NCBI RefSeq assembly: GCF_018143015.1
Contig: NC_054743.1
Location: 35,403,243-35,467,242, forward strand
From: Lytechinus variegatus
Lineage: Eukaryota
Length of the DNA stretch: 64,000 nucleotides
Reading direction: 5' to 3'
The number at the start of each line of letters is the position of its first letter. Position 1 is the first letter of the stretch. Made by a program: the position numbers and the translations under genes. The notes beneath the pieces were generated by a model that saw only the letters and a list, made by a program, of their open reading frames with translations, was not told the DNA's origin and searched no databases. This document shows positions 4,058 to 63,000 of the stretch, one piece after another.

Positions 4058-5167
4058 TCAAGAAACGTCAGCTCTCCGATGATTACACAATCCCTTCCAA
4101 GTTTTACGAACAAACTCAGCCACTGCATGTCGATAGGTTTCCTTCAGGAGTAGATATATCACAGTGTTCAACCAACCATTGCACAAAGTCAACCTCGACG
4201 CGAGCTCCATTATGTTTGGAGGTATCCTTTTGCCACGCACGGCCGCCACAACTTCACAAATTGTAAAAGGCAACCAAGCAATATAAAATGCCCCAGCGAT
4301 CGATACCGTCAATATCACTGATTTTATTAGCCCGCGGTGGCGCATGTGACGTGCGAGTTTCTCGGCACGTTCGACATCCTTTTGAAACTGTTCCGTGGTG
4401 CGCGTTTGCGATTCAGTGCGCACGGTCGAAGCATTCACCATGGCAACTGCGGCTTGACTGGCAATCGTCCGAGCATGCCGCCGCACAATATGCAGCATTA
4501 AAACATAAAAAATAAGAAGCAAAATAGCGTACATCCACATGGAAATGGCAAAGCTGAATATCGTGTACGGTGCGAAATATGGCTGAGAAAAGTCCACCAA
4601 GCAAACTCCGAATTCCCGGTAGACAATGATGTTGAATCGATCGCCGGCGAAATACAGAACAAAAAACAATATGATGAAAGTTCCGAATGTTTGTGATACC
4701 ATTGTGGCAATTGCGCGCTTCCGATTGACAAGAGAGGCGTAACGTAAAGGTCTTGTAACTGCGATGAAACGGTCGACATTCAGGTAAAATACTGTTGATG
4801 AGGATAGTCCCGTTGTCACCGTCAGAAAATACCCTAGAGCTTTACAAAGCGGATTTCCAAACGGCCACTCTCCTCCGACGGCAGCAACGCTCATTGGCAA
4901 CAGTAAGATACCTGTGGCCAGATCAACGAGTGCTAAGGACATGTAGAACACACGACTGGCTTCATTCAGTTCTGCTAGGTGGGGCAAGATGATGAGGTTC
5001 AAGATATTGCACACAATTGACAGGACAGCGGTAATAGCGATCAGTGTGACTCCTGTTAGTGATTGCTGCGGGTCCGGTGAGGTCGTTGGCCCAGGTCCAG
5101 GTCCAGTGAAAGGATACGACGATGTCGTACTGCCATATTCGATTATGCTCATATTCTCTAGATCCAT
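4058..5167 (-). CDS. Class A (rhodopsin-like) G-protein-coupled receptor, single coding exon, 369 aa (orphan; ligand class not assignable)
   Basis: The 1110-nt ORF has seven hydrophobic segments. Class-A landmarks are present: N in TM1 (CNILNLII), LALVDL in TM2 (D2.50), DRF in place of DRY at the end of TM3, W in TM4, FAPY in TM5, AWLPF in TM6, and NTVIY as an NPxxY variant in TM7, followed by a basic C-tail. The N-terminus has a GPGPGP linker. Confidence 0.8.
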   Translation of the reverse strand: MDLENMSIIEYGSTTSSYPFTGPGPGPTTSPDPQQSLTGVTLIAITAVLSIVCNILNLIILPHLAELNEASRVFYMSLALVDLATGILLLPMSVAAVGGEWPFGNPLCKALGYFLTVTTGLSSSTVFYLNVDRFIAVTRPLRYASLVNRKRAIATMVSQTFGTFIILFFVLYFAGDRFNIIVYREFGVCLVDFSQPYFAPYTIFSFAISMWMYAILLLIFYVLMLHIVRRHARTIASQAAVAMVNASTVRTESQTRTTEQFQKDVERAEKLARHMRHRGLIKSVILTVSIAGAFYIAWLPFTICEVVAAVRGKRIPPNIMELASRLTLCNGWLNTVIYLLLKETYRHAVAEFVRKTWKGLCNHRRADVS

Positions 5168-5271
5168 GGAAATCGAATTCTGAAAAATGAAGGTCGATTG
5201 ATATCTAACATCTCTTCATCATAATGAAGGTCGCGTAGCAATAAAGGATAATAGCATGAAAAATGACCCGG

Positions 5272-5420
5272 GCAGCGTTTCATGAAAGACTTGTCGGACG
5301 TTTAATACAAGTCCTGTTGAATCTGAGAGTTAACAAATAACTGTACTTCGCTACCAATCAAAATCAAGGAAAGTTGTCAGATCTGTCAATTTAAAGACGA
5401 TGTTGATGAAATGCTCCTTG
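5272..5420. mobile_element. MITE, GGGGCGTTTCATGAAAG...CCAATCAAAATCA...GATGAAA(C/T)GCTCC family
   Basis: gggcagcgtttcatgaaagacttgtcggacg...ccaatcaaaatcaaggaaag...gatgaaatgctcc. Same family as 15058-15222 (full), 6480-6602 and 21700-21810 (partial). Confidence 0.65.
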
Positions 5421-6226
5421 GTTTGCTGTAACTGTGAACTCTGTCATTCGGTAGAGCGAGGTAAAGAGTTGTCCTGGAACTGGGATCTTGAAGGGTGATT
5501 GACATTCGGTCACATTCCTCACAGCATCCTTTATTGATGGAAGCCCAGAAGAATCTGTTTGGTAACACACATACAAAAATGGATATGATTAACCTTCATT
5601 AATTTCTTTGAGTCTATTTAAAGTGAAAATTATCTGCTCAATGCAAGTTTATGAGAGATCGAAAATTGGCGACGTCTTTCACAGTCTAGAAGACTAAAAA
5701 TGTGAAAATTAGAAAATTTGTCGTCTCTGTGGAATAGCTCCCCCCACCGAAAGAGCCATAAAAGACTATAGCTTATACTTCTTGTCCTGTCCTACACTGA
5801 TCTTTCACTGATCTTACATTAGTATTTGAATTGGTATATACAGAGATCTTTTATGCTTAATCATGCTAATGGTCTTTCGGCAGAAATTTTTCCATGGACT
5901 TTCACTGGTCTCTCTCTTTCAAGGATCTCTCATGAGTCTTTCAGTAATCTCAAAAAATAAATTGAGAGACTGTTGAGATGTGATGGAACGGCTATACACA
6001 TGCCCTTTGAGAGATTATTGTGAGACAGCGGTAAGACCACTGGAAGACCATGCACTTTCCTTGAACTGCTTTGAACCGTTTCAAAAGTTTTGGAGGCCAT
6101 GCGAAGAAATTTCAAAGATCTGACAGAAATCAAGTAAGACCTTAGAGATCATTAAAAGCTCATTGAAAGACTGTACACTATTGAAAGATCAAGCAAATAG
6201 GAGCCGCATTGCATGAAAGGACTTTT

Positions 6227-6478: not shown

Positions 6479-6479
6479 A

Positions 6480-6602
6480 TTCAAGTCCTGTTTTATCCGG
6501 CAGTTGTCATAGATTCTGTTCTCAGCCAATCAAAATCAAGGAAAGTTCTCAGATCTGACAAATTGTCAGACGAATATTATTGATGTTGATGAAATGCTCG
6601 TC
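6480..6602. mobile_element. MITE fragment, CCAATCAAAATCAAGGAAAG family
   Basis: ...ctcagccaatcaaaatcaaggaaagttctcagatctgacaa...gatgttgatgaaatgctcg. The 5' TIR is missing. Confidence 0.55.
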
Positions 6603-15057: not shown

Positions 15058-15222
15058 TGGGGGCGTTTCATGAAAGGACTTGTCGGACGTTTTATCCGAC
15101 AAGTCCCATTTTATCCGACAGTTACCTTAGGAACAGTGCCTCTCAGCCAATCAAAATCATGGAAAGATATCAGATCTGACAACTTGTCGGATGAAAATAT
15201 TGATGAAACGCTCCCCAGGTTA
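15058..15222. mobile_element. MITE, GGGGGCGTTTCATGAAAG family (complete)
   Basis: gggggcgtttcatgaaaggacttgtcggacg...ccaatcaaaatcatggaaag...gatgaaacgctcccc. The terminal inverted repeat is perfect. Confidence 0.75.
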
Positions 15223-29345: not shown

Positions 29346-30229
29346 AAATATCCGTGTGCCGCTACTTTATACACACAATATATTGATTGTAATTTCATTC
29401 ATTCTCGGTATCCTTCGCCGAGATGTAAAATTGTAAAAAATGTATTGTAAAGGTTTTCCCCTCCAAAACGGATGAATGGTTGAAAATCCAAATTTTCTGG
29501 GGGCTTATCAGGCCTCCACACGACAAAACATCCTTTATGAGATTTCAAAGCAACTCGGACGATAATCAAACAAATCCCAGGCTAATGTGTGCTCCTGAGG
29601 GCATGAAGATGATATTGTGGTTAGATTTTTTTTGAAGCATTTAAAAAAAAATCTCATTTATCATACCTTTTGTCAATGTTCCAGCTTTCTTTTGCATGCT
29701 GCTTTTCGAACTTCCCTAGTCTCTTCAATATTTCCATTTCTCTTTGTTTGAAAAAAAAAAACATCAAAAGTATTTAAAGGTTAAAAGTTTCCCGGATTTC
29801 AGATATAAATCTCAAAGATTACTGAAAAGTGTATGGAAACCCATTTCGATCCCACGCGAACGTGACAGGATGCTACATATTTCATAGCTAGTTTGTGCAG
29901 GCCTTCAGAACTTCAAAAGGTTTGATAAATATCCGTCTGTGATTAATTGATCAACCTCTGTTGACGACATCGCCCACCGTCGCCGCCGCTTCCGTCGGAC
30001 AAGCAGACAAAGAATGAAATGGGGGAGTCGTCCAGGATGCCCATCCCTACACATGGAAGATGTTTTTAATAGAAAAATATATGTACAAAAAGTATGGATT
30101 CCTACATTTCTTGAAAAGAGGCATCCATGATAAAGATGAGTGTTCTCCTCTTCTATCTTTTCTTACTTTCTTTTCCCATTTTCTAACCCTTAACTTTTCA
30201 ATTCCGTTCACATCCTCTCTCCTTCCCCC

Positions 30230-30545
30230 ACCTCTCTCCCTCTCCCACACACATCCACTCTCTCCCTCTCTCACACACACACACACACAACCTCTCACAT
30301 ATTCACTCCCTCTCTCTCTCACACACACACACACACTCTCACACATCCACTCTCTCTCTCTCACACACACACAAACACATCCTCTCTCTCTCTTACACAC
30401 ACACACACACATCCACTCTCTCTCTTACACACACACACACACACATCCACTCTCTCTCTCTCTCACACACACACACATCCTCTCATACATCCACTCTCAC
30501 ACACACACACACACATCCTCTCACATATCCACTCTCTCACCCTCC
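30230..30545. repeat. Compound microsatellite (CT)n(CA)n
   Basis: ctctctctcacacacacacaca...atccactctctctctc repeated. The ORFs 30047-30412 and 30060-30590 are low-complexity artefacts. Confidence 0.9.
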
Positions 30546-30772
30546 CATTTATTTCTCACTCTCCCTTGTTATTTTTTCTTTTTCTTTTAAAATATCACAA
30601 CACACCCACCTATGCGCACCAAACCCACCCTATTTCCAATAGTGTATGCTTGTCAAAACACTATACAGATGGAAAGATAATCACTATATAATCCATACTA
30701 TAAGAAAATAAAGTCATTTGGAGTAATCAAAATTAGCAATTAATTTGTAATAGATATCTTCCATGCATGGCC

Positions 30773-33519: not shown

Positions 33520-34060
33520 AAGCATAGAAATAGCAGTGCCACCCCCCCTCCCTCCTTGAATTTTTCCGCGTACATTCGTAATCCCAAAGCTTCGTTATTC
33601 CGAAGGTTCGGATATTCCGAAGGTTCGGATATTCCTGAGGTTCGTATTTCCGAACGTTCGTAATTCCAAAGGTTCGTTAGTCTGAAAATGAAGTAGGGTT
33701 CGTAATGTCGAGGGTTCGTTAGTCCGAAAACGAAATGAGGTTCGTAATTCTGAAGGTTCGTTAGTCCGAAAACGAAAAGAGGTTCGTAATTCTGAAGGTT
33801 CATTAGTCTGAAAACGAAATGATGAACGAACTTTATTTCGTTTTAGGACTAGCGAACCTTCAGAACAACAAACCTTATTTCGCTTTAGAATTAACGAACC
33901 TCCGGAACAACGAACCTTATTTCGCTTTAGCATTAACGAACCTCCGGAACATCGAACCTTCGGAATAACACCACAAATGTTCGGATTGACGAACCCTTTT
34001 ACGTTTTTGGATTAACGAACATCGAGGTATAGGCAATTTACGTGTTTCGGAATTACGAAG
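33520..34060. mobile_element. Foldback element whose arms are tandem ~20-30-bp subrepeats (GGTTCGTAATTCCGAA units)
   Basis: Left arm 33590-33830 is tandem aggttcg(t/g)a(a/t)ttccgaa(a)(cgaaatg) units. Right arm 33830-34030 is the same units reverse-complemented (gaaccttatttcgctttagaattaacgaacctccggaac...). The centre lies near 33830. Confidence 0.7.
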
Positions 34061-34899: not shown

Positions 34900-35013
34900 T
34901 CATTGCTCATGCTTTCTCTTGGTCTTCTTAGGGTTCCTGGACCTACTCTTGGCCTTGCACAGAGGACAGATGGGAGCATTTCTGTGGATCTGCTGGTGGC
35001 ACGACAGACAGTT
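34900..35013 (-). CDS. ZC4H2: ZC4H2-like protein, coding exon 5 (terminal): [37 protein letters not shown]
   Basis: Acceptor cctctctctctttctag| is at 35014-35030 on the minus strand. The reading frame is phase 0 with exon 4. Stop TGA is at 34900-34902. The C-x2-C-x10-C-P-x-C-K motif and the basic tail match the C4H2 zinc-finger C-terminus of vertebrate ZC4H2 (...[41 protein letters not shown]...) as I recall it. Confidence 0.8.
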
Positions 35014-35698
35014 CTAGAAAGAGAGAGAGGAAAAAAATGAATGATGGCCGATACATCCACCTTTAAACCCTGGTATTTACAAGCATATTATTAACATTAC
35101 AGATGCTAACAGAGTATGAAATAAACTCATATTGAAGTTGAGCAAACTGATTCAAATCAGGTAGAAATGAATTAATGGAATTTAATGTTCATTCATTTCA
35201 GGAAAATGTCTACTAATACAGTAGGGCAGATTGGTTACTTAAGACATCATTAATCCATGAATTACACAGCTTTCAAAATGCCAAATAAATCTTCTTTTGG
35301 CTTCTTAAATTGGCAAAAACTCATGAATTTTCAATATATTTTCATATTTTTAAAGAAACAAAATACTTAAAAAAGAACAGATACAAGAGGACCCTTTGCA
35401 TGAAGCATAAAACTTTTGCTTTTGCCTGAGTTTTTTTATGGCAAAAGTTTTTGCAATGGGTCACAGATGTAGAGATTTATGATCAATGAATTAATTTATT
35501 GAAAAGTTGCCTATTTGTATTTTTAAGTAGAGATTTAATTGTTTCATTGCATTGCCAAAAAAATGCTATTTTACAGGCAACTTTATACTCAATGATCCAA
35601 TATACCATGAGTAAATATAAATATTTCATTTTGATCACAGAATGCGTACGTATATGAGCTAACTTGTTGCAAGGGTTTGATACAGAGGACAATCCTAC

Positions 35699-35903
35699 CT
35701 TCATGGGTGGTGGTTGCTGTTTGAAAGGGGGTGGAGGAGGAGGAAGGGGGCCGTTCATCTCCTTGGTGTGGCTGGTTCCTGGCATCTGAAGGGGTGTAGG
35801 GTGTTCCAGAGGTACGGGTAGGGGGCATGAAGTCGGGGTGAGGGGCGACGGGGGATCCCTCTTCTCTGTGTCGTGCCACTCTGCTCTTCTCTTCCTCAGG
35901 AGC
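35699..35903 (-). CDS. ZC4H2: ZC4H2-like protein, coding exon 4: (E)LLRKRRAEWHDTEKRDPPSPLTPTSCPLPVPLEHPTPLQMPGTSHTKEMNGPLPPPPPPFKQQPPPMK
   Basis: Acceptor ttgctgttacag|G and donor ATGAAG|gtagga. The exon begins with 1 nt (phase 1), completing GA|G from exon 3. The Pro-rich segment ending QQPPPMK directly precedes the zinc finger, as in vertebrate ZC4H2. The alternative overlapping frame (ORF 35589-35963) is not supported by splice phase. Confidence 0.75.
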
Positions 35904-36427
35904 CTGTAACAGCAAATGACGCATTTTACGATTGAAATTTCCACTCATTTCATTATTCAACAAACTACAAATTTACCGAGTCAATTTTTTGACAAATTCT
36001 CTGATCATCTTATTCACCTGTAAATATTGTAATTTGGTGTTCTCTTCATTATCTGTTAGTTGCATCTGCTTCAAAAGATTACATGATGCATTTACTTCTT
36101 TATTATACACACACAAATAAAAGGTCAATAATAATATGATAAATGATACCATGAAGCCATTAAAGTTGAGTTAAATATGTAGCATAAATACAAAGATACA
36201 ATGATATAAAAAAGAAGTATATGGTATCAATATGATTAAACTCTGTGAAAATAGAGAGGTCCATTTTTAAAGTGTCATACATTAGATATGCTCTTTTACA
36301 GTTCAATGAGGTTTTGCCTGTTCAGGGGTGGCCTAAGGGTAATTTGAAGGGGGGGGGGGATGGCCAAGTTAGCCTAAAAGTTGCATCATCCTTATGCCTC
36401 AGCCCATAATAGGTGATTGTCAGAGGC

Positions 36428-36900
36428 ATTAAAGGGGAAGTTCACCCTGGCAAAGAGTTTACGGTAAAAATAGCAGAAAAAAATAATGTAATATTGCCAA
36501 AGATTTGAGCAAAATCCATCATAGTATAAGAAATTCACTCATTTGATTTGTGATGTCATACATGTACATGTATGCGAGCAGCTTTCCTGCCTATCTATGA
36601 AATGTCATTTTCTCGGAAAACTGAAAATTGTTTTTACTGTACCTTCAACATAAAAATAGACAAATCATTTCACACCCCTGCCTATAAAAAAAGCAAAAAT
36701 AAATCCTCACGAATCATTACAAAAATTAAAATAATGCATTTTATATTACATAACATATGGGGCAGCTGCTCATTTATGACGTCACAAAAATTTAAATTTC
36801 TAATAACTTTATTAATCTTTAATTAATTTTCCTCAAACCTTCACCACTATTTTTTCTGCTATTTTTACAATATTTTCTTCAGGGTGAACTTCCCCTTTAA
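36428..36900. mobile_element. TTAA-flanked MITE, AGGGGAAGTTCACCCTG family (intron 3 of ZC4H2-like gene)
   Basis: ttaa|aggggaagttcaccctggcaaagag...tttatgacgtcacaaaaat...cagggtgaacttcccct|ttaa. Confidence 0.7.
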
Positions 36901-36929
36901 GTTTATAGATCATCCTTTCGTCTCGTGTA

Positions 36930-37102
36930 TACTACTTACTCTGGATCAAGTCTCCGGTCTTCCTCTGTAAGCTCTGGGATACGATCTAGTCCTATCGACA
37001 TTCTCTGGGCGTTGATTTGTTCTTTGAGGCAAACGTATTCCTGGTACATCTTCCAAGCTGCCTCAAACGCCTTGTTCCTGTCTCCCTCTGTGTTCTTTAT
37101 CA
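36930..37102 (-). CDS. ZC4H2: ZC4H2-like protein, coding exon 3: IESVIKNTEGDRNKAFEAAWKMYQEYVCLKEQINAQRMSIGLDRIPELTEEDRRLDP(E)
   Basis: Acceptor ctcttttcactctccctttaag|ATTGAG and donor CCAGA|gtaagtag. Only one of the three frames is open across the 173 nt. Predicted coiled-coil composition, similar to the middle of vertebrate ZC4H2. Confidence 0.75.
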
Positions 37103-37246
37103 CGCTCTCAATCTTAAAGGGAGAGTGAAAAGAGGGAGGGATGGACGCTGACGGAAGAAAGAAATAAACATTATATAAGTCTATGATGTTGATGATAATG
37201 ACAGCAATGCTATAATAATGATGTTGATGTTGATGACATCGATGAA

Positions 37247-37545
37247 GCGCCGTGGTGTAGCGGTTCTGACTCTAGCCTTGTAATCAGAGGGTTGTGTGTT
37301 CGAATCCCACCATGGCCTAGCGCCCTTTGGCAAGGCGTCAATCCACACTTTGCCACTCTCACCCAGGTGCTAATTGGGTACCGGTAGGACACAACGGTCA
37401 TTGTGGTTGGTTTAGCAAGTTTGCGCCTAACAGGCTGCTTGGAATGCTATGAATCCAGTGACCGGGTAATAATAATTGTAAAGCGCTTTGAACAGTCGTA
37501 GATTGATAAAGTGCTATATAAATGCCAATTATTATTACAATGATA
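37247..37545 (+). mobile_element. Composite tRNA-derived SINE (in intron 2 of ZC4H2-like gene), followed by a microsatellite
   Basis: tRNA-like head gccgtggtgtagcggttctgac...aatcagaggg...gtgttcgaatcccaccatggc. Central domain ...caaggcgtcaatccacactttgccactctcacccaggtgctaattgggtacc. Tail gtaaagcgctttgaacagtcgtagattgataaagtgctatataaatgccaattattatta. Same architecture as 63001-63290 and 49483-49800. Confidence 0.65.
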
Positions 37546-37980
37546 ATGAGGATGATAACGTTGATCACAATGGGTATTATGATAGTGATGAGATGATGAT
37601 GATCATGATCACTGCCATTATGATGATGTCAGCAATTTTCATGATAATGATGTTAATTATGATCATTATTCTCAATCCACTTTTCAGACTGATGATCACA
37701 AAGATAATGATAAAGGTGACGATACTGATTAAGGTGACAGATGGTGATGATGGTGGTGATGATGATGGTGATGATGAAGATGATGATAGTGATGATGGTG
37801 ATGATGGTGGTAGTTGTGATGATGATAATGATGATCATGATGATGGGGATGATGATGATGATGATGGATGGGGATAATGGTGATGATGATGATGGGGATG
37901 ATGATGATAATGATGATGACGATAACAATGATCGCTCAGTAATTATTTCCAAAACAATCATAATACACTTCACCAACTAA
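37546..37980. repeat. Microsatellite (ATG/GATGATGGT)n
   Basis: gatgatgatgatcatgatcactgcc...gatggtgatgatggtggtgatgatgatggtgatgatgaagatgatgat. The ORF-track peptides 37488-37877, 37653-37976 and 37741-37980 are artefacts. Confidence 0.9.
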
Positions 37981-38250
37981 CTTCGAAAGATACTGTTTAC
38001 TCTTTAGAAGAAGTGCATTGTGATCAATTTTTGTCTTGTTTTTCTCTTTAACTCTGCATTTGTATTATAGTTCGGCCATGCCTGACAAGCACCTGTTACT
38101 GGTCCCATTTACCATGTCTATTACATGCTTCATGTGTGTATCAAATTTTCCTGCAATTTTTTTTCATTGTATCCCTGATTGTTTCATTATAACCTGTAAA
38201 CATGTGAATACTGACAAATGAAATGAAATCAACGGGGAATTGTTACTCAC

Positions 38251-38422
38251 TGTGTTAATGTCTGAATGTATCTGTCTGAGTTCCTCTACGTGTGCCAGCC
38301 TCTCCTGGTTGAGCAGGTCCATCTCATGCCGATATTCCTTTAATCTATCCTCCTCCTTCTCGGCCTCCTGCATATCCACCAGGAGCCGACCCTTCATCTT
38401 CTCCAGGTGGACCGTCTGCGAC
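38251..38422 (-). CDS. ZC4H2: ZC4H2-like protein, coding exon 2: (R)SQTVHLEKMKGRLLVDMQEAEKEEDRLKEYRHEMDLLNQERLAHVEELRQIHSDINT
   Basis: Acceptor ccctcggtttccag|GTCGCAG and donor AACACA|gtgagtaac. The run EYRHEMDLLNQERLAHVEELRQIHSDIN parallels vertebrate ZC4H2 ([31 protein letters not shown]) as I recall it. Confidence 0.8.
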
Positions 38423-38523
38423 CTGGAAACCGAGGGATTATGGAAAAGAAAAATCATTATTCTTCCTCAATAGAAAATACCTCCATTTATCATACTATTC
38501 AGACTATGCAGTTTCTTAACCCC

Positions 38524-43529: not shown

Positions 43530-43925
43530 GACGCATTTTGCAACATTTCATGTCTAACATTGCTGTGTATTATCATGTCTGTGTATTTCATGATAACACT
43601 AGCATTACAAATGACACATGATTGTAAAGAAGAATAATCATGCTTTCTAAAGATATCACTTTTACACATGATGATGGCACATTAAGAAATTTATTAGCAC
43701 TCAAACTTGCAGTTTGAGTTGCAGAACTCAAACATGACATGGCAACGAATTTTGCAACATTTCATTTTTTACATTGCTGCATATTTATCATGTCTGTGTA
43801 TTTCATGATAACACTAGCATTACGAATGACACATGATCGTAAAGAGAAATAATCATACTTTCCAATGATACCACTTTTACATATGATGATGGCACACTAA
43901 GAAATTTATTAGCACTCAAACTTGT
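43530..43925. repeat. Tandem duplication, ~220-bp unit x 2
   Basis: ttgcaacatttcat.t.taacattgctg.at.ttatcatgtctgtgtatttcatgataacactagcattac.aatgacacatgat.gtaaaga.aataatcat.ctttc.aa.gata.cacttttaca.atgatgatggcaca.taagaaatttattagcactcaaacttg occurs twice, with ~90% identity. Confidence 0.75.
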
Positions 43926-49482: not shown

Positions 49483-49800
49483 TTAAGTGCAGCATGTGGG
49501 GCTGTTTCTGAATAATAATAAATAAAAAATAACATAGCATTTGTATCGTGCACATACCCACCTTGCTCAAGGCGCTCCTATATTACCAGGCTATTAAAGC
49601 TAGTCTACCGAATCCGGTGCTTACATCTTTTTTCTGAGGAATTACTTCCTGCCGGCAACCATTTACCTCACCTGGGTTGAGTGCAGCACGATGTGGGTAA
49701 ATTCCTTGCTGAAGGAAAACATGCCATGGCTGGGAATTGAACCCACGTCCCTCATATTGAAAGATTAAAGTCTTAACCAATAGACCACAATGCCCCCGAT
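49483..49800 (-). mobile_element. Composite tRNA-derived SINE (minus orientation)
   Basis: The reverse complement reads ggggcattgtggtctattggttaagac...gagggacgtgggttcaattcccagccatggcatgttttccttcagcaaggaatttacccacatcgtgctgcactcaacccaggtgaggtaaatgg...gagcgccttgagcaaggtggg...(ATT/ATA)n. It is ~85% identical to 63001-63140. The ORF 49583-49843 is an artefact of this element. Confidence 0.7.
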
Positions 49801-61584: not shown

Positions 61585-61960
61585 TACATTCATTGACCCT
61601 AAATGACATTCGACCTTGATCATGTGACCTAAGACTTGTGCAAGATGATCAGTGATATTTGATCACCCCTATGTCCACATTTCATGAACTGTATCCATAA
61701 ACTTTCAAAGTTATGATGGCAATTCAACGATTACCCCCAACGTGGCCAAAGTTCATTGACCTTAAATGACCTTTGACCTAGGTCATGTGACTTGAAACTT
61801 GCAAGGGATGTTCAGTGATATTGGATTACTCGTATGTCCAAGTTTTATGAACTAGTTGCATAAACTTTCAAGTTACAATGGTAATTCAACAAATACCCTC
61901 AACATGGCTAATGTTCATTGAAACTAATGACCATGGTCATGTGTTCTAAAATTTGCATGG
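61585..61960. repeat. Satellite-like tandem array, ~122-bp unit x ~3
   Basis: The unit ttcattgacc.taaatgac.tt.gacct.g.tcatgtgac.t.a.acttg..ag.gatg.tcagtgatat.tg.at.ac.c.tatgtcca..ttt.atgaact....c.ataaactttcaa.gtta..atgg.aattcaac.a.taccc.caac.tggc.aa.g starts near 61585, 61710 and 61835. Identity between units is ~75-80%. Confidence 0.7.
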
Positions 61961-63000
61961 GATGTTCATTGATACTTGATTACTCCTATGTCTAATTCCT
62001 ATGAGCTTTTCCATCGGAAAAAGCAGCGCCTATAGTCTCTCTCTGCTATGCAGCCGAGGCAAAAACGCTTGAGATCATGTACATGATATGGCTTGACTCA
62101 ATATAAATTTATAACTTGTGAACAGTTTACGCAAACCAGGGAAAAAATGCAAAAAGCCCTGGAAATTAAAAGAAATACACGTAGCCCCAGCAAATCTCAG
62201 TTCACTGCGATGCTATCAAGCTTTTTATGTAACACATTCAGGCAGTAGGTTGTGAAACTAGCAGCCCCCCCAAAAAAAAAAAAAGCCTTACACAAGCACC
62301 TATTATTAGCACATGCAACCAAGCAAGAAAACTAATGATTTTTTTACTCATTGGATTCTAAAAAAAAAATGGGTTAGACAGACGGATGAGCAGACAGACT
62401 AACCTAAAAACGCAATTCCTCTGGCAACCATATACAGTGGGTGGACTGAGGCTTAAAAAGCATTAGATATGGAGGGAAGTATAGACCAGTTGGTAGTTAC
62501 TTCATGTAATTTTGGTCAAATGGCCTTTCATGTATTTCATTGTGATTGGCAGATTTCAAAGCAAGATATTACATAGGCTTGCCTTACATAGCAGTATGAA
62601 GAAATTGAATAGACCAGGTGACTAGAATAGCACACCAATGAACACTCCATGAAGGTATTTGTTGCATTCCTACTTTGAATGCATATCATAGCATGTTGCA
62701 CAATCTACATGTACTTGGCAAACTGTGAAATACCAGTCGTTCGTGGAAGCATTGTTGTTTTCCGTGGATGTATTAAATGAAAACCACAATTCAAAAGAAT
62801 ATATGAATAATCAAGACATCAAAGTTGGTGCTTATCTCATTAGATTTTAAACCACCATGTCATTTGGTACAAATGACCTTCCTCTGATCATGCGTAGAAT
62901 CTTTTAATCATGCGCAGAAAGGAACTATGAACTGGCTTATTAGGATATGGCACAGTATATTAAATTACAAGATTCTACATTTACTCATATTTTATATTTG

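Follow-up and report, generated by a model that had tools for sequence, protein, structure and literature searches.

Two groups of described receptors bear most directly on the gene considered here, the vertebrate aminergic class-A receptors and the chemosensory GPCRs of sea urchins. The aminergic receptors carry an amine-binding aspartate at position 3.32, which acts as the counter-ion of the ligand, and the opsins carry a lysine at 7.43 that is the site of the retinal Schiff base. Orphan rhodopsin-type GPCRs are present in sea urchins in large numbers and are well documented there. In the original description of the surreal-GPCRs, a coding sequence without introns is said to be a feature of those families. 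Strongylocentrotus purpuratus has ~920-979 GPCRs, 538 of them classed as surreal-GPCRs, and a tandemly expanded chemosensory GPCR type has been described for sea urchins (PMC7042368). The 64 kb stretch of Lytechinus variegatus DNA analysed here (the window) holds a single receptor gene that resembles both groups in part. We regard it as very likely that this gene encodes a functional echinoderm orphan class-A GPCR on a one-exon coding sequence, with translation probably starting at Met6 and a non-coding exon probably lying upstream. The gene itself has little significance beyond annotation hygiene, to which three corrections contribute: one to its name, one to its start codon and one concerning the 5' end of its ortholog.

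The coding sequence is the sole open reading frame of at least 200 aa in the window. Its features, and those of the encoded protein, are these:

4058..5167, minus strand: single-exon coding sequence of an orphan class-A GPCR, Met1 to stop, 369 aa, stop codon at 4060-4058
5150..5152, minus strand: Met6 ATG, the start conserved across genera, with A at position -3
4145..5059, minus strand: seven-transmembrane core, residues 37-341, as predicted by AlphaFold2, with predicted transmembrane helices at residues 37-63, 69-98, 105-138, 149-177, 196-249, 258-311 and 317-341
4141-4067, minus strand: helix 8, residues 343-367, as predicted by AlphaFold2
4766..4774, minus strand: DRF motif (D3.49/R3.50/F3.51) at the cytoplasmic end of TM3, residues 132-134, invariant in 11 orthologs
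4154..4168, minus strand: NTVIY motif (N7.49/T7.50/Y7.53) in TM7, residues 334-338, invariant in 11 orthologs

The protein is 100% identical to RefSeq XP_041461381.1 of L. variegatus (an exact match in the protein collection), which is labelled "trace amine-associated receptor 1-like"; the gene is therefore already annotated rather than new, and it belongs, as an unremarkable member, to a receptor family confined to echinoderms. A literature search with the four RefSeq accessions of the receptor and its orthologs found no mention of them. Pfam 7tm_1 (PF00001) matches the protein at E=7.6e-30; the score of 104.7 bits exceeds the gathering cut-off of 30.5, and the match spans profile positions 2 to 260 of 260. 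The coding sequence lies on one exon in the genomes of L. variegatus, L. pictus and S. purpuratus. The proposal of an intronless class-A GPCR with a 369-aa reading frame, made in a first-pass annotation of this DNA, is thus well founded. Weak Pfam matches to the nematode chemoreceptor families Srsx and Srx were also returned. NCBIfam gave no match, as expected of a library of bacterial and archaeal models, and a sigma-70 promoter and terminator scan, which is not relevant to a eukaryote, returned nothing.

An AlphaFold2 model built from a seven-sequence alignment (mean pLDDT 69.7, pTM 0.66) has seven helices followed by helix 8, in agreement with the expectation of at least seven transmembrane helices, and includes an ECL2 hairpin. 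Searched against the PDB with Foldseek, the model finds class-A receptors alone at probability 1.00, the best being A2A, A1, 5-HT2A and beta-1. By sequence, the best matches among solved structures (HMMER) are the beta-3 adrenergic, 5-HT6, beta-1, 5-HT2A and TAAR1 receptors, at E-values of 1e-20 to 1e-16; the leading matches, of the amine type, reach ~1e-19 to 1e-20.

Generic positions were assigned from HMMER alignments to solved receptors and from a 164-sequence alignment of the nearest representatives. Ten rhodopsin-family landmarks are kept: N1.50, D2.50, C3.25, D3.49, R3.50, Y5.58, W6.48, P6.50, N7.49 and Y7.53. The earlier statement that the full landmark set is present holds for these ten but is overstated as a whole, because W4.50, P5.50, C6.47 and P7.50 are replaced. 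Position 4.50 is Thr rather than Trp (11 orthologs; Ile in one), and in all 11 orthologs Tyr stands in for Pro at 5.50, Ala for Cys at 6.47 (AWLP for CWxP) and Thr for Pro at 7.50. The substitutions of DRF for DRY and of NTVIY for NPxxY were correctly recognised from the start. Phe is commonly seen at 3.51, where 47 of the 164 nearest representatives have it, and only 49 of the 164 have Pro at 7.50. The alignments suggest that NTVIY is a variant of the NPxxY motif and not a loss of it. DRF and a non-proline residue at 7.50 are family traits, typical among the nearest relatives.

The predicted disulfide pair of C108 (C3.25) and C189 in ECL2 (EFGVCLVDF) is kept in all orthologs. Within the putative ligand pocket, the residue aligned with D3.32 of the beta-3 adrenergic receptor is Leu115; this position is Leu in 11/11 orthologs and Asp in none of the 10 closest paralog clusters. 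Position 7.43 is Leu328, again in 11/11 orthologs (the opsin Lys is absent), and 7.40 is Arg, not Trp. The sole conserved charged residue identified in the pocket is Glu305 at 6.55, invariant in 11 orthologs. Leu at 3.32 would rule out a classical biogenic amine as the ligand, and the lack of Lys at 7.43 would rule out retinal. From what holds for class-A receptors in general, we propose that a ligand would dock in the extracellular pocket formed by the transmembrane helices, that TM6 would swing outward about the W6.48/P6.50 hinge and that R3.50 of the DRF motif, together with Y5.58 and Y7.53, would then establish the G-protein-binding state. Details of this activation may differ from those of textbook receptors because W4.50, P5.50 and P7.50 are replaced.

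Close relatives of the receptor are few. The L. pictus ortholog XP_054752610 is 97% identical, the S. purpuratus-group ortholog cluster (XP_011666229 and eight close Logan-contig proteins) is 79% identical, and a further homolog on an ENA contig is 56% identical. An HMMER search of 1.84 billion protein representatives found only 12 clusters at E<1e-30. Among the 20 closest clusters looked up, every one with a source name is echinoderm, the named relatives being Diadema, Lytechinus, Strongylocentrotus, the crinoid Antedon and the sea star Acanthaster. Calling the receptor a lineage-specific orphan is a fair description on these matches, and the suggestion that it is of the peptide type finds no specific support. 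The 64 kb window contains no second GPCR or paralog, and none lies within 10 kb of the ortholog on either side in S. purpuratus and L. pictus. The ratio dN/dS (Nei-Gojobori) is 0.11 against L. pictus (dS 0.15) and likewise 0.11 against S. purpuratus (dS 1.09), from which we conclude that the gene is functional and under strong purifying selection. By these comparisons the receptor has one-to-one orthologs in L. pictus and the S. purpuratus group and belongs to a small family.

Conservation also bears on where translation begins. The Met1 ATG (5167-5165), with T at -3, is found in Lytechinus only. Proteins of the S. purpuratus group begin MSVTEYG or MSETEYG, which corresponds to the Met6 position, and in the Strongylocentrotus-group sequences an in-frame TAA precedes the ATG by 9 nt. 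MSMIEYG, again at the Met6 position, opens the current L. pictus model XP_054752610.2 (362 aa). The L. variegatus model XP_041461381.1 starts at Met1, whereas the newer L. pictus and the S. purpuratus models start at the position of Met6. Met6 (5152) is the conserved start, and translation most likely begins there; because Met1 is intact in both Lytechinus genomes, either codon may be used. Taking Met6 rather than Met1 as the conserved start codon is the second correction to the annotation. It also displaces the reference point of the first-pass annotation, which had measured from the ATG at 5167: a distance of 12 nt becomes one of 27 nt.

That distance refers to a proposed 3' splice acceptor just upstream of the coding sequence. 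Three features upstream of the gene are relevant to it:

5180..5193, minus strand: candidate 3' splice acceptor ccttcatttttcag/ (the slash marks the splice junction), at a distance of 12 nt from Met1 and 27 nt from Met6
5270..5417, no strand assigned: MITE-like dispersed repeat of ~148 bp with imperfect terminal inverted repeats, upstream of the receptor gene
5555..5578, minus strand: alternative candidate acceptor ttttgtatgtgtgttaccaaacag/attc, beyond the MITE, where the S. purpuratus acceptor region finds its best local alignment

The evidence for an upstream exon comes from the Strongylocentrotus-group ortholog. Two contigs from one sequencing project, L001 (SRR31798689) and L010 (SRR31798687), carry 211 and 151 nt, respectively, of unrelated sequence upstream of a junction 212 nt before the ATG. 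At the point where they diverge, six genome-collinear sequences (the S. purpuratus assembly and Logan contigs L006, L007, L008, L009 and L011) read ...tttttatatccatacag/ (...ccatacag/), within the context ...gttgattttgtttgtttttatatccatacag/ATACATTC, 212 nt upstream of the ATG. Downstream of the junction L001 and L010 are 99.4-99.5% identical to L009 and L011, which follow the genome upstream of it. Compared with 0.7-9.8 kb of upstream genomic sequence, the diverging 211 nt show no more similarity than shuffled controls do. A break after a pyrimidine tract and AG, with one path per project, is what spliced RNA on the one hand and genomic DNA on the other would be expected to give. The junction therefore makes a non-coding upstream exon likely. 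For Lytechinus itself we favour such an exon with some reserve; blastn finds no homology between the genera upstream of window position 5156, the local alignments there have p ~0.06-0.1, and the intron is one that we infer from the ortholog because the 5'UTR is barely alignable between genera.

The intron would also be long. Positions 1-211 of L001, searched by sensitive blastn and by Smith-Waterman alignment against shuffled controls, have no above-chance match in 9.8 kb upstream of the S. purpuratus gene, in 10 kb of L. pictus or in the whole window, and it is the absence of the 211-nt piece from those 9.8 kb that implies the length. An ortholog that apparently has a long 5'UTR intron, with its acceptor ~212 nt upstream of the ATG, is the third correction and can serve as a guide for Lytechinus gene models. 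The two-exon transcript originally envisaged is consequently supported in one part, the non-coding upstream exon, through L001 and L010; the position of its junction is where the ortholog disagrees, since that junction lies 212 nt upstream and not 12.

The model in its original form, in which the intron ends at ttttcag/ between 5180 and 5179 and one further non-coding exon lies beyond the MITE, is the strongest of the alternatives, and we nevertheless consider it doubtful. The string ccttcatttttcag/aattcgatttccATG is present exactly as it was described, the G of its AG falling on 5180 and the ATG occupying 5167-5165. A crude position-weight matrix places the site 47th among the 6454 AG dinucleotides that the two strands of the window contain, in the top 0.73%; sites of this quality arise by chance at ~3.7e-4 per base, that is, ~0.01 per 30 nt and ~0.04 per 100 nt upstream of the ATG. 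The motif may thus be called suggestive, not decisive. It is identical in L. pictus, like most of its neighbourhood, and sits in a 38-nt run free of substitutions, but this run is not significant because ~0.3 such runs are expected (an estimate) in a 560-nt alignment at dS 0.15. Splicing at 5180 would leave the MITE and several upstream ATGs (attATGATGaagagATG, 5215-5203) out of the mRNA, and the upstream non-coding exon that the ortholog contigs imply is in keeping with the model.

Those same contigs, however, join 212 nt upstream of the ATG rather than 12 or 27 nt, and L001 and L010 continue without a break across the segment aligned with the ttttcag site. In the Strongylocentrotus group, the last 50 nt before the ATG are without any AG scoring above 0 on the same matrix. 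With an mRNA beginning 12 nt before Met1, one would likewise not expect the L. pictus RefSeq model to start at Met6 while Met1 is intact. Taken together, the ortholog evidence argues against a junction at 5180 specifically. The matrix offers no way of choosing: the ortholog's implied acceptor scores 0.84, in the top 8%, and a score this mediocre means that matrix scores cannot decide between candidate sites. Exact look-ups with the window protein and with XP_054752610.1 found no Lytechinus transcript contigs for the receptor in the collections, and the 90% cluster of the receptor protein holds only three NCBI entries.

The ortholog junction could instead have arisen without splicing, as a structural variant such as a transposon insertion allele, or as an assembly chimera, in which case none of the species would have a 5'UTR intron. 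We judge this unlikely. Both contigs come from one project, whose runs SRR31798687 and SRR31798689 may be RNA or DNA, and the 211-nt piece of L001 has no place in the 9.8 kb upstream in S. purpuratus or in the window. L010 ends 284 nt past the stop codon, as do L002, L006 and L011, which resembles an assembly break at a repeat rather than poly(A), and an insertion polymorphism that happened to end at an AG would look alike. Against this, the breakpoint falls exactly after a pyrimidine-rich tract and AG that are identical in all six collinear sequences, and identity drops from ~99.4% to nothing at one base. A de Bruijn chimera requires a single sample to contain both paths, and the contig would be expected to end at the branch; that each project has one path would fit RNA and DNA libraries and not such a chimera.

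With an upstream exon as the preferred reading, the position of a corresponding acceptor in Lytechinus can be sought on the far side of the MITE. The candidate at 5555-5578 is the best match within 1.25 kb upstream and is conserved in L. pictus, yet 20 of 200 shuffles equal its score; as a possible acceptor it is a weak lead only. Another candidate, at ~5341 inside the MITE, emerged from a MAFFT alignment with S. purpuratus and was dropped, given that it lies in a dispersed repeat and that blastn finds no upstream homology between the genera. When the MITE was removed and S. purpuratus was realigned, upstream identity was only 49%.

The repeat reported upstream of the gene as a MITE (then placed at 5272-5420) is real and behaves like one. 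Two further copies of the repeat at 5270-5417 occur in the window, at 15063-15214 (75.7%) and at 6479-6599 (72.6%), making three in all. Its terminal inverted repeats are imperfect, as GCAGCGTTTCATGAAA shows when compared with GTTGATGAAATGCTCC in reverse complement, and are clearest in the 15 kb copy in a three-copy alignment; an inverted-repeat tool missed them. L. pictus shares the repeat, in a copy that has an internal deletion. Were an acceptor homologous to that of the ortholog used in Lytechinus, the MITE would lie inside the 5'UTR rather than in the intron.

As to the class of the receptor, the resemblance to the surreal-GPCRs raises the possibility of a chemosensory receptor of that kind, sensing environmental small molecules in tube feet or pedicellariae. 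Like the surreal-GPCRs, the receptor is echinoderm-specific and of the rhodopsin type and has an intronless coding sequence; the weak matches to nematode Srsx and Srx point in the same direction, as does the large share of surreal-GPCRs among the GPCRs of S. purpuratus. Unlike them, it is solitary in the regions examined in three genomes, with no tandem cluster, it evolves slowly and it belongs to a small family. Clean one-to-one orthologs at a dN/dS of 0.11 are not the mark of rapid lineage-specific turnover, and 12 clusters at E<1e-30 among 1.8 billion proteins are few. A solitary, slowly evolving gene argues against the tandemly expanded chemosensory type, and we find this interpretation improbable.

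The features of the pocket admit a more speculative proposal, namely an echinoderm-specific class-A subfamily without W4.50, P5.50 and P7.50 in which E6.55, and not D3.32, would bind a cationic ligand. We put this forward as a long shot. If it were true, the candidate ligand of E6.55 would be an amine or a basic neuropeptide, and the pocket would differ in its chemistry from the pockets of characterised receptors.

An orphan receptor with an aminergic-like fold, as opposed to a true amine receptor, remains our preferred reading of the protein. With the vertebrate aminergic class-A receptors, which supply its best sequence and fold matches, it shares N1.50, D2.50, the C3.25-ECL2 pair, D3.49/R3.50, Y5.58, W6.48-x-P6.50, N7.49 and Y7.53; compared with the beta-adrenergic, 5-HT6/5-HT2A, TAAR1 and H1 receptors it is without D3.32, W4.50, P5.50, P7.50 and W7.40, and its identity to them is ~20-25%. 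It is therefore best described as having an aminergic-like fold, and probably the same activation machinery, without being a member of the aminergic family. That it is nonetheless a receptor for biogenic or trace amines, which the names TAAR1-like and beta-3 adrenergic receptor-like in RefSeq imply, is very improbable: amine receptors lead the solved-structure matches and stand with adenosine receptors among the top Foldseek matches, but identity to any amine receptor is only ~20-30%, Leu occupies 3.32 throughout the orthologs with no Asp among the closest paralog clusters, Arg replaces Trp at 7.40, and the automatic names of the paralogs (rhodopsin-like, allatostatin-A receptor-like, octopamine receptor-like, alpha-1A-like) contradict one another. 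The label "beta-3 adrenergic receptor" is carried by the S. purpuratus orthologs XP_011666229 and XP_003725011. Because D3.32 is absent, this label and "TAAR1-like" are best-hit artefacts, and recognising both as misleading is the first correction to the annotation.

Further upstream on the same strand, ~30 kb from the receptor gene, lies a ZC4H2-like gene, whose exons were mapped with a human ZC4H2 sequence that served as an approximate probe only. A protein search with one of its exons returned a single fragment. The mapped exons are these:

38424-38239, minus strand: ZC4H2-like exon
37112-36948, minus strand: ZC4H2-like exon
~35.6 kb, minus strand: ZC4H2-like exon
35010-34903, minus strand: ZC4H2-like last coding exon

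The receptor's putative non-coding first exon would be expected on the minus strand at window 5.6-34.9 kb, somewhere in the ~30 kb that extend up to this neighbour.

Four Logan contigs that carry the Strongylocentrotus-group ortholog of the receptor gene come from different runs and share a 3′ end point: L002, L010 and L011 all stop exactly 284 nt past the ortholog's stop codon, and L006 stops 283 nt past it. No poly(A) signal was found near this common end; most likely the assemblies broke off there at the edge of a repeat. A further ortholog contig, L007, extends beyond this point and has an inverted repeat match at that place.

The start codon of the receptor differs between RefSeq models (window 5150-5167 (-); L005 9986-10003). 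Met1 (MDLEN...) is the start in the L. variegatus model and in the earlier of the two L. pictus models; the newer L. pictus model begins at the Met6 position despite an intact Met1 in the same assembly.

In both Lytechinus species, the chromosome that carries the receptor gene also has, outside the window, a paralog 30-35% identical to the receptor:

L. pictus, chromosome CM073229.1: XP_054752595 ('allatostatin-A receptor-like')
L. variegatus, 66.4 Mb chromosome: XP_041461654, modelled as a fragment of 145 aa

Because the accession numbers are close together, we suggest that the receptor gene and this paralog are loosely linked.

Upstream of the receptor gene and on the same strand lie exons of a ZC4H2-like zinc-finger gene. 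These exons, and the low-complexity and tandem repeats of the window, have the following positions:

30231-30538, CT/CA-rich low-complexity array
33575-33960 (33.6-34.0 kb), tandem arrays with 16-42-nt periods
34903-38424 (-), ZC4H2-like exons as a whole
35010-34903 (-), last coding exon, similar to the human C-terminus
~35.6 kb (-), exon (FKQQPPPMK)
37112-36948 (-), exon
37740-37923, tandem repeat (GAT)61, between two ZC4H2-like exons
38424-38239 (-), exon with a Pfam zf-C4H2 match (E=2.8e-17)
43531-43924, tandem repeat, 215-nt period, 1.8 copies
61589-62004, tandem repeat, 163-nt period, ~2.4 copies

The last coding exon is 89% identical to the human ZC4H2 C-terminus. The CT/CA-rich array gives rise to spurious long ORFs on both strands, at 30060-30590 (+) and 30047-30412 (-), and GC skew falls to -0.34 in the 30-32 kb bin.

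An Rfam tRNA match at 49722-49794 (-) scores 33.1 bits, barely above the gathering score of 29, and ARAGORN called no tRNA in this interval; its likely source is a SINE derived from a tRNA, or else a tRNA pseudogene. Two more copies of the ~148-bp MITE-like element located upstream of the receptor gene, at ~73-76% identity, occupy 6479-6599 and 15063-15214, the latter with almost perfect terminal inverted repeats (GGGGGCGTTTCATGAA / TTGATGAAACGCTCCCC).
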